Part shown: one piece after another, positions 53,769 to 54,020 of the stretch
Layout of the letters: each line of letters opens with the position of its first letter
How positions within the stretch are numbered: position 1 is the stretch's first letter
From: an uncultured archaeon
GTDB lineage: Archaea > Asgardarchaeota > Lokiarchaeia > Sigyniarchaeales > SOKP01
Direction of reading: 5' to 3'
Assembly: GCA_964508365.1 (NCBI GenBank)
Contig: CAZDTP010000020.1
Coordinates: 1-61,604 of the forward strand
Length of the DNA: 61,604 nucleotides
The notes under the pieces: generated by a model
The model's database searches: none
What the model saw: only the letters and a program-made list of their open reading frames with translations
Told to the model about the DNA's origin: nothing
Made by a program: the position numbers and the translations under genes

Positions 53769-54020
53769 ATGACAAACGTATCAAAATATTATAAGATTGA
53801 GGATGGCATTTTAGTTAGGACTCATCGTGAGTGCCCCAAGTGCGGACCATCGTATTTTCTCGCCGATCACTATGATAGGTAGTAAGTAAGCCTTATTATC
53901 CATAAAAGATCATCGTGCGGGAATTGTGGATACACAGTTTTTAAAAGGAAAGGAAAAAAAGGAGCATCTAGCGTCGCTCGAACTGGAAGATCGCCTCGAA
54001 AGCGTACGAAATCAGTATAG
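53769..54020 (+). CDS. rps27ae: 30S ribosomal protein eS31 (S27ae), split gene: join(53769..53876,53907..54020), 73 aa after splicing
   Basis: Exon 1 is [36 protein letters not shown] and exon 2 is [37 protein letters not shown]. The gene follows rps24e, as in the conserved archaeal cluster. Confidence 0.95.
53877..53906 (+). other. 30-nt bulge-helix-bulge mRNA intron in rps27ae
   Basis: Central helix UAUG/CAUA, 3-nt bulges AUA and AAA, a 9-bp intron stem and an exon-exon stem. It contains in-frame TAG TAA. Confidence 0.88.

Follow-up and report, generated by a model that had tools for sequence, protein, structure and literature searches.

A probable bulge-helix-bulge intron in the coding sequence of the ribosomal protein gene rps27ae of an Asgard archaeon

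Thirty nucleotides (53877-53906) that interrupt the single-copy coding sequence of rps27ae, the gene for ribosomal protein eS31, in an Asgard archaeon are very probably an archaeal bulge-helix-bulge (BHB) intron, spliced from the mRNA in the style of EndA and RtcB. The gene lies in a stretch of 61,604 nt (the window) of a MAG designated G000 (4.07 Mb in 149 contigs, 100% complete, 3.65% contamination). The case is carried by the intron stem, the central helix and the splice junction; the outer exon helix is left out of it, for reasons given below.

The interrupted gene

Here, as in relatives, rps27ae lies downstream of rps24e; on the plus strand, 26 nt separate the end of rps24e from the rps27ae start codon, ATG 53769. 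The rps27ae frame halts at TAG (53880-82) and TAA (53883-85), reopens, unshifted, past a 30-nt insert that is placed between the CxxC halves of the eS31 zinc ribbon, and then runs to its stop codon at 54019-21. The parts of the locus are:

53386-53742, plus strand: rps24e (eS24), an ORF of 118 aa (PF01282, 78.1 bits), the upstream member of the conserved rps24e-rps27ae pair
53769-53876, plus strand: rps27ae exon 1, 36 codons with the first CxxC (CPKC), ending ...HYD and matching PF01599 positions 1-36
53877-53906, plus strand: the predicted BHB intron, 30 nt, beginning in frame with AGG TAG TAA and absent exactly from the relative G011
53907-54021, plus strand: rps27ae exon 2, with the second CxxC, a basic tail and the stop codon TAG (54019-21)

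The read-through product matches all 44 positions of PF01599 (Ribosomal_S27) with 52.9 bits and carries a 10-residue insertion; deleting 53877-53906 raises the score to 65.7 bits (44/44 model coverage; the cut-off is 22.3), and the spliced product has a four-Cys zinc ribbon, CPKC...CGNC. Exon 2 has no in-frame start codon (ATG, GTG or TTG). When the whole assembly was searched in six frames, a single PF01599 match above the cut-off emerged, this gene; the intact second copy whose existence would have weakened the proposal is thus not found above the cut-off in a 100%-complete genome. Rfam and ARAGORN return no match in the window.

The bulge-helix-bulge fold

The insert and its flanks fold into the following elements:

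53857-53923, plus strand: the complete hBHBh' motif, including the closing pair C53870-G53908
53871-53874, plus strand: 5' strand of the central helix, UAUG (exon), paired with 53901-53904
53875-53877, plus strand: 5' bulge AUA, with the predicted cut after U53876 (cleavage rule of PMC2738675)
53878-53900, plus strand: intron hairpin, a 9-bp stem (53878-86 with 53892-900) and a 5-nt loop (53887-91)
53901-53904, plus strand: 3' strand of the central helix, CAUA (intron), paired with 53871-74
53905-53907, plus strand: 3' bulge AAA, with the predicted cut after A53906; AAA is invariant in 13/13 intron-bearing genomes

The strands of the intron stem are GGUAGUAAG (53878-86) and CUUAUUAUC (53892-900), with two G-U pairs; the 11-bp exon-exon outer helix joins 53857-67 to 53912-23, with U53916 bulged. 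Two 3-nt bulges on opposite strands with a 4-bp helix between them are found in all 13 intron-bearing genomes. Both flanking helices, h (exon-exon) and h' (intron), are present, h being weak beside the bulge: at the 3' bulge the exon helix consists of one C-G pair, and a 2x3 internal loop stands between this pair and the long helix. Pairing in another register (C53868-G53908) would be about equally stable, and the registers of h vary between genera. The minimum-energy fold given by ViennaRNA (-20.3 kcal/mol) has the intron stem and the outer helix as in the BHB, and enforcing the BHB core places the RNA only 1.0 kcal/mol above that minimum. An earlier, sequence-only reading had drawn the fold by hand: its coordinates, frame, stops, pairings, bulges and loop all hold base for base, and the geometry of its full BHB is exact, with the single C-G exon pair at the 3' bulge as the one caveat.

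How much is such a fold worth? Motifs of this quality (a closing pair, a 4-bp helix, 3-nt bulges, and a stem of 9 bp or more in which no more than two pairs are G-U) occur 51 times in 8.1 Mb of strand, or ~6e-6 per position, and genome-wide their rate is not above that of decoy geometries. The BHB motif alone therefore proves little. The proposal to scan the genome for BHB motifs in other apparently broken genes met the same difficulty: the rps27ae intron was recovered, with almost no excess over decoy geometries. What lies far beyond chance is that the motif coincides exactly with a 30-nt indel against intronless orthologues.

The splice product and the intronless relatives

Cuts after the second nucleotide of each bulge join GAU to AGA, so that HYD is followed by RSSC; the predicted spliced junction reads GAUCACUAUGAU joined to AGAUCAUCGUGC (likewise given as GATCACTATGAT joined to AGATCATCGTGC). 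In a protein collection, close intronless relatives encode ...LADHYDRSSCG(N/K)..., which is residue for residue the predicted spliced product. The earlier expectation of a product HYDRSSC with the family spacing restored thus corresponds to what intronless relatives encode, as well as to the rise in PF01599 score noted above.

The comparison is equally exact at the level of DNA. Up to the 5' site, G011 and the window agree at 96.9% of 1,598 nt; G011 then skips exactly 30 nt and is 93.5% identical in exon 2. (G011 is also the closest relative at two further loci, with 94% and 89-94% identity.) The same precise presence and absence distinguishes a group with 31-nt inserts (G030, G019 and G150) from G022 and two metagenome contigs at 92-95% identity, and distinguishes G096 from an intronless Logan contig (98.7% identity upstream). 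With AG recurring at either end of the intron, the relatives by themselves would allow the indel to be placed at 53877-906, 53878-907 or 53879-908; the BHB rule, with its cut after bulge nucleotide 2, selects the first of these.

The spliced G000 product itself was not found in a collection of 15 billion proteins, where the best match is 84-87% identical. A metagenome scan for the spliced or the unspliced junction returned three contigs, all intronless and 1.5-13.6 kb in length; as candidate cDNAs these were rejected, their neighbouring genes marking them as intronless relatives. Two full-length proteins resembling the product of spliced G096 (P0085 and P0103) were likewise rejected as proof of splicing: low-coverage contigs that are 97-99% identical to G096 upstream of the site identify them as products of intronless relatives.

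Distribution among relatives

The family survey covered 135 genomes of the same GTDB family, 129 of them with a PF01599 match. In 13 of the 129, the window's own genome included, the rps27ae match is broken at profile position 36; they belong to three genera, namely g1 (G000, G004, G030, G019, G150), g22 (G074, G076) and g28 (G096, G114, G093, G133, G134, G137). Nine of the inserts are 30 nt long and four are 31 nt, all of them between GAY (Asp) and AGR (Arg), and removing the insert leaves an intact four-Cys eS31 protein in 13/13. The unspliced frame meets a stop within three codons of the 5' site in every one of these genomes. The 31-nt introns also shift the frame, so that reading through the stops, or tolerating an in-frame insertion, could not restore those genes. 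In the spliced frame, exon 2 is open and keeps its CxxC and basic tail in 13/13 species, with exon identity between groups of only 63-85%. The other intron-bearing genomes yielded no second rps27ae-like copy; G137 has an extra PF01599 match, but at 21.8 bits it falls short of the cut-off, and it is part of a 300-aa ORF.

A pattern scan of 185,579 species, each represented by one genome, found the intron in the same 12 MAGs besides the window's genome, and only there; the NCBI labels of most of these are Promethearchaeota, with one Odinarchaeota, one Promethearchaeia and one "uncultured archaeon". The remaining matches are chance occurrences in unrelated sequence (five were inspected). Gene callers mishandle such genes, as had been foreseen: for G134, G093, G137 and G114, NCBI annotates a 37-aa "30S ribosomal protein S27ae" (P0099-P0102) that consists of exon 1 only. 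With eS31 truncated in this way in public annotation, Asgard marker sets, completeness estimates and ribosomal-protein phylogenies can silently lose or shorten genes.

A separate observation concerns two genomes of genus g28, which have a second, divergent short S27ae-like ORF besides the normal gene (G097:C82:94830-94940 and G141:C4:48221-48328; L055 and L056). Its motif is CPKCG...NNYYRWTCVKCG, and the G141 version has an internal TAA.

Covariation

The 13 intron-bearing sequences were aligned (A1) and 25 pairs were scored against 500 shuffles and against controls in which the pairing partners were slid. In this alignment 91.7% of cells are paired, compared with 42.8-45.5% when the 3' partners are slid by one to three columns, and 10 of the 25 pairs have changed on both sides, that is, by compensatory substitution within the BHB. 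On four of five measures (the percentage paired, the numbers of double-changed pairs and of double-changed cells, and the covariation score) none of the 500 shuffles reaches the observed value.

In the intron stem, 99.1% of the cells are paired and seven of the nine pairs are doubly changed, GGUAGUAAG/CUUAUUAUC in the window being replaced elsewhere by GAUUUUAAG/CUUAAAAUC and by AAUUAAGAA/UUCUUAAUU. The central helix is 100% paired in the 13 genomes, with three U-G pairs and one double change from U-A to C-G; the latter occurs in G133, whose exon strand has TAC for TAT, a synonymous change. The pair that closes the motif is likewise 100% paired, always as C-G or U-G. An independent prediction by RNAalifold includes the central helix, the 5' bulge of 3 nt and the stem, and enforcing the BHB core on each sequence leaves it 0.1-3.1 kcal/mol from its unconstrained optimum. 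An alignment of rps27ae across relatives had been suggested as a check; it yields 13 family genomes with the intron, stem pairs that are compensated and BHB pairing that is conserved.

The outer helix is another matter. It is 81.8% paired in A1; however, 10.0 of 12 outer-helix pairs can form in intron-bearing genes and 9.3 of 12 in intronless ones, the FLA and CG(N/K) codons being complementary by nature. As evidence of selection it was accordingly rejected; the outer helix is largely a by-product of the FLA...CG(N/K) codons and does not constitute independent evidence.

The splicing enzymes and a proposed mechanism

The genome encodes two EndA paralogues of ~200 aa each (PF01974, 98 and 71 bits; TIGR00324), which are 28% identical to one another. 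One is alpha-like and keeps the Tyr/His/Lys catalytic triad; the other is beta-like, with the His replaced and a weak match to the beta-subunit model. RtcB is also encoded (559 bits), so that endonuclease and RNA ligase are both present. Asgard archaea carry a broad-specificity (alpha-beta)2 EndA with an L1 loop (PMC5829648), which the pair in this genome fits, and (alpha-beta)2 is the type that has been linked to splicing of the cbf5 pre-mRNA (PMC2738675).

The proposed mechanism would run as follows: 1) In the pre-mRNA, UAUG at the end of exon 1 would pair with CAUA near the 3' end of the intron to form the 4-bp central helix, flanked by the two 3-nt bulges, the 9-bp intron hairpin and the exon-exon helix. 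2) Heteromeric EndA would cut after the second nucleotide of each bulge. 3) RtcB would join the exons, GAU to AGA (...HYDRSSC...), and would probably circularise the intron. 4) The full zinc-ribbon protein would be made only from spliced mRNA; translation of the unspliced message would end one codon into the intron and yield a 37-aa product.

We infer both that cleavage and ligation occur and that EndA and RtcB perform them. Judging from the genome sequences, the eS31 mRNA must almost certainly be cut and rejoined by the enzymes of tRNA splicing. An EndA-type intron in the eS31 mRNA, the central proposal of the sequence-only reading, appears well founded in the geometry, the junction, the single copy, the 31-nt versions, the covariation and the encoded enzymes. 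There is a counterpoint: transcription and translation are coupled in archaea, and splicing would have to keep ahead of the ribosomes, a difficulty that cbf5 shares.

Weighing other explanations

Might an enzyme other than EndA and RtcB recognise the hairpin and excise the insert from RNA? The exon helix at the 3' bulge is weak and the action of EndA on this substrate is a prediction, but the features that are conserved are exactly those of an EndA substrate (3-nt bulges spaced 4 bp apart, cuts in the correct frame), and EndA alpha, EndA beta and RtcB are all encoded. We know of no other archaeal system for the precise excision of 30-nt hairpins, and we consider this explanation improbable.

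Splicing might also be dispensed with entirely, the ribosome either hopping over the insert, as it does in phage T4 gene 60, or reading through the stops. The resemblance to gene 60 is superficial: a stop codon follows directly on the would-be take-off region, and a hairpin starts there. Yet readthrough would have to pass two consecutive stops (TAG TAA) and would not repair the four frame-shifting 31-nt versions, while a ribosome that left GAU 53874-76 for the one GAU further on (53908-10) would land in the wrong frame. Moreover, it is BHB geometry that is conserved (4-bp helix, 3-nt bulges, covarying stem), and not a match between take-off and landing codons. Translational recoding of either kind is very unlikely.

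The same low standing must be assigned to a pseudogene or split gene, in which the hairpin would be the footprint of an insertion and the cell would either lack eS31 or make do with a 37-aa fragment. The unspliced frame is indeed closed, and the 37-aa product is all that annotation pipelines call in intron-bearing MAGs. Against this stand the following: the gene is the sole copy in a 100%-complete genome; exon 2 is conserved as an open frame in 13/13 species and has no start codon with which to function as half of a split gene; and the structure of the insert is maintained by compensatory changes, of which a dead footprint would show none. An artefact of assembly or binning might come to mind, the genome being a MAG of 149 contigs, but can be dismissed as exceedingly unlikely, since an insert occurs at the same site, variable in sequence and in two lengths, in 12 other independently assembled MAGs from different studies.

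Intron history

The closest relatives of G000 (G011, G032 and G031) are without the intron, and G004, a more distant relative, carries a version identical at 29 of 30 positions. The minimal tract over which G000 agrees with G004, and not with its intronless closest relatives, is:

53864-53915, plus strand: the intron and six synonymous sites

The sites in question (53864, 53867, 53870, 53873, 53912 and 53915) are all in the G004 state. Against a background of 97% identity between G000 and G011, these six synonymous differences crowd around the intron, reaching 13 nt upstream of it and 9 nt downstream (binomial P ~2.6e-4), and the remainder of both G000 exons follows G011 and G032. Selection for structure explains the six changes poorly, because they lift the pairing of the outer helix merely from 11 to 12 pairs. 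From these five genomes we infer that short-patch recombination, over 52-86 nt, may have moved the intron allele between lineages, in either direction; this would be more economical than structural selection. The break in similarity at the intron site of G096 may be a second such case: Logan contig L111 (2091-2093) and G096 L102 (6382-6410) are 98.7% identical for 1.6 kb before the site and 89.4% identical after it. A lateral origin may also be considered for the G133 intron, whose stem is 96% identical to that of the G030 group, but the G133 exons are about equally distant from everything.

The intron appears to behave as a dispensable element that has been gained and lost, and perhaps exchanged, among close relatives. 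Its patchy distribution fits a mini-intron that comes and goes, possibly moving laterally, better than it fits a conserved regulator, and nothing indicates a regulatory purpose. Tying ribosome biogenesis to EndA activity, as was initially suggested, is speculation: the intron is present in only 13 of 129 genomes of the family, and the closest relatives do without it. The site may have been pre-adapted to receive an intron, in that the FLA...CG(N/K) codons supply an exon-exon helix beforehand. When the genome was searched with a covariance model built on the intron (R1), no second copy came up, and the only other hit (17.6 bits) has no BHB; the rps27ae intron is therefore not a multi-copy element here.

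Relation to known systems

The precedent is the intron of the cbf5 pre-mRNA in Desulfurococcales and Sulfolobales (Watanabe 2002; Yoshinari 2006; Yokobori 2009, PMC2738675), which is cleaved between the second and third residues of each bulge (PMC2738675). In both cases a short BHB-type intron lies within a coding sequence, the frame is restored by predicted cuts between the second and third bulge residues, the hosts have a hetero-oligomeric (alpha-beta)2 EndA, and the distribution is patchy, with gain and secondary loss. The predicted rps27ae intron can accordingly be placed in the cbf5-type class of archaeal pre-mRNA introns. There are also differences. Cbf5 is a pseudouridine synthase of Crenarchaeota, while rps27ae encodes a ribosomal protein in Asgard archaea; the BHB core of rps27ae is canonical (3-4-3), while relaxed motifs prevail in cbf5; and species that share 92-97% identity at the locus differ in whether they have the rps27ae intron. 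Splicing of cbf5 has been proven by cDNA and by in vitro cleavage, whereas the support for the rps27ae intron is comparative throughout.

In 2020, cbf5 was described as the sole earlier BHB intron in archaeal mRNA, to which an intron in the 5' UTR of Haloferax volcanii HVO_1309 was then added (PMC7714728). HVO_1309 and rps27ae would both be mRNA substrates of the archaeal splicing endonuclease (by prediction for rps27ae); however, the HVO_1309 intron, being in a UTR, has no reading frame at stake, its host has an alpha'2-type enzyme, and its splicing has been verified in vivo and in vitro (PMC7714728). Asgard tRNA genes are heavily interrupted, with introns at non-canonical positions (PMC5829648; bioRxiv 10.64898/2026.10.13.758758); the latter paper does not mention mRNA, and where protein-coding genes appear in it, it is as neighbours to tRNA loci. 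The archaeal non-canonical tRNA introns share with rps27ae the motif, a similar size (~30 nt) and, by prediction here, the enzymes; the difference is that the rps27ae host is an mRNA, in which the sides of the exon helix are built from codons. In the searchable literature we found no report of BHB introns in Asgard mRNAs, and the only archaeal coding sequence recorded there as spliced by the tRNA endonuclease is that of cbf5 (Crenarchaeota).

A more distant parallel is provided by the unconventional splicing of HAC1/XBP1 in eukaryotes. There, as is proposed for rps27ae, hairpins mark the sites at which a specialised endonuclease frees a small intron from a cytoplasmic mRNA; a tRNA ligase, which in animals is RtcB, seals the exons, and removal alters the reading frame or the C-terminus. 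In contrast, the endonuclease there is IRE1 and not EndA/TSEN, the process is regulated by stress, and the recognition motif is not homologous.

If the proposal is right, an Asgard (Promethearchaeota) archaeon has a canonical BHB intron in a ribosomal protein gene that is both essential and single-copy, and archaeal mRNA splicing can be studied in a second, well-defined gene family. The intron-bearing and intronless alleles form a natural pairing for tests of cost and mechanism, and they illustrate in concrete terms how introns are gained and lost in the lineage nearest to the eukaryotes. A wider proposal, that a population of BHB mini-introns resides in Asgard protein-coding genes and moves at the level of DNA by short-patch homologous recombination, is on shakier ground; we regard it as a tentative possibility, somewhat more apt to fail than to hold. 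Were it true, the closest prokaryotic relatives of eukaryotes would routinely splice mRNAs with their tRNA machinery.

Further candidate introns and side observations

A genome-wide scan that combined BHB motifs with ORF repair recovered the rps27ae intron and a few other good-looking candidates; it is too crude to serve for counting introns. In leuS, on the minus strand of G000 contig C33 (index ~15752 of the reverse complement), a 29-nt frame-shifting insert separates GYD from SFGLPAEN. It follows ...CCA ATG GGC TAT GAT, and both the UAUG/CAUA helix and the TATGAT end of the 5' exon are as in rps27ae.

Next to rps27ae, an acidic, repeat-rich ORF of 1313 aa on the minus strand (54072-58013) ends 51 nt past the rps27ae stop codon, and synteny with the closest relatives, G011 and G032, breaks at ~54014. 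An orthologue of this ORF occurs only in G004, the other intron bearer of the subgroup (79% amino acid identity overall; 96-99% nucleotide identity at the 3' end). An earlier GIY-YIG-like reading of this ORF is not confirmed by Pfam, which gives no family at E <= 0.01.

ARAGORN finds just 29 tRNA genes in G000 despite its 100% completeness, 17 of them with introns of 5-41 nt; many of the tRNA genes are probably hidden by non-canonical introns. Two further BHB-like candidate inserts were flagged by the genome-wide scan: one of 30 nt at C3 30946-30975 (minus strand), with a 10-bp stem and a 10-bp outer helix, whose removal joins 157 and 300 codons, and one of 27 nt at C9 66152-66178 (plus strand), whose removal joins 117 and 75 codons.
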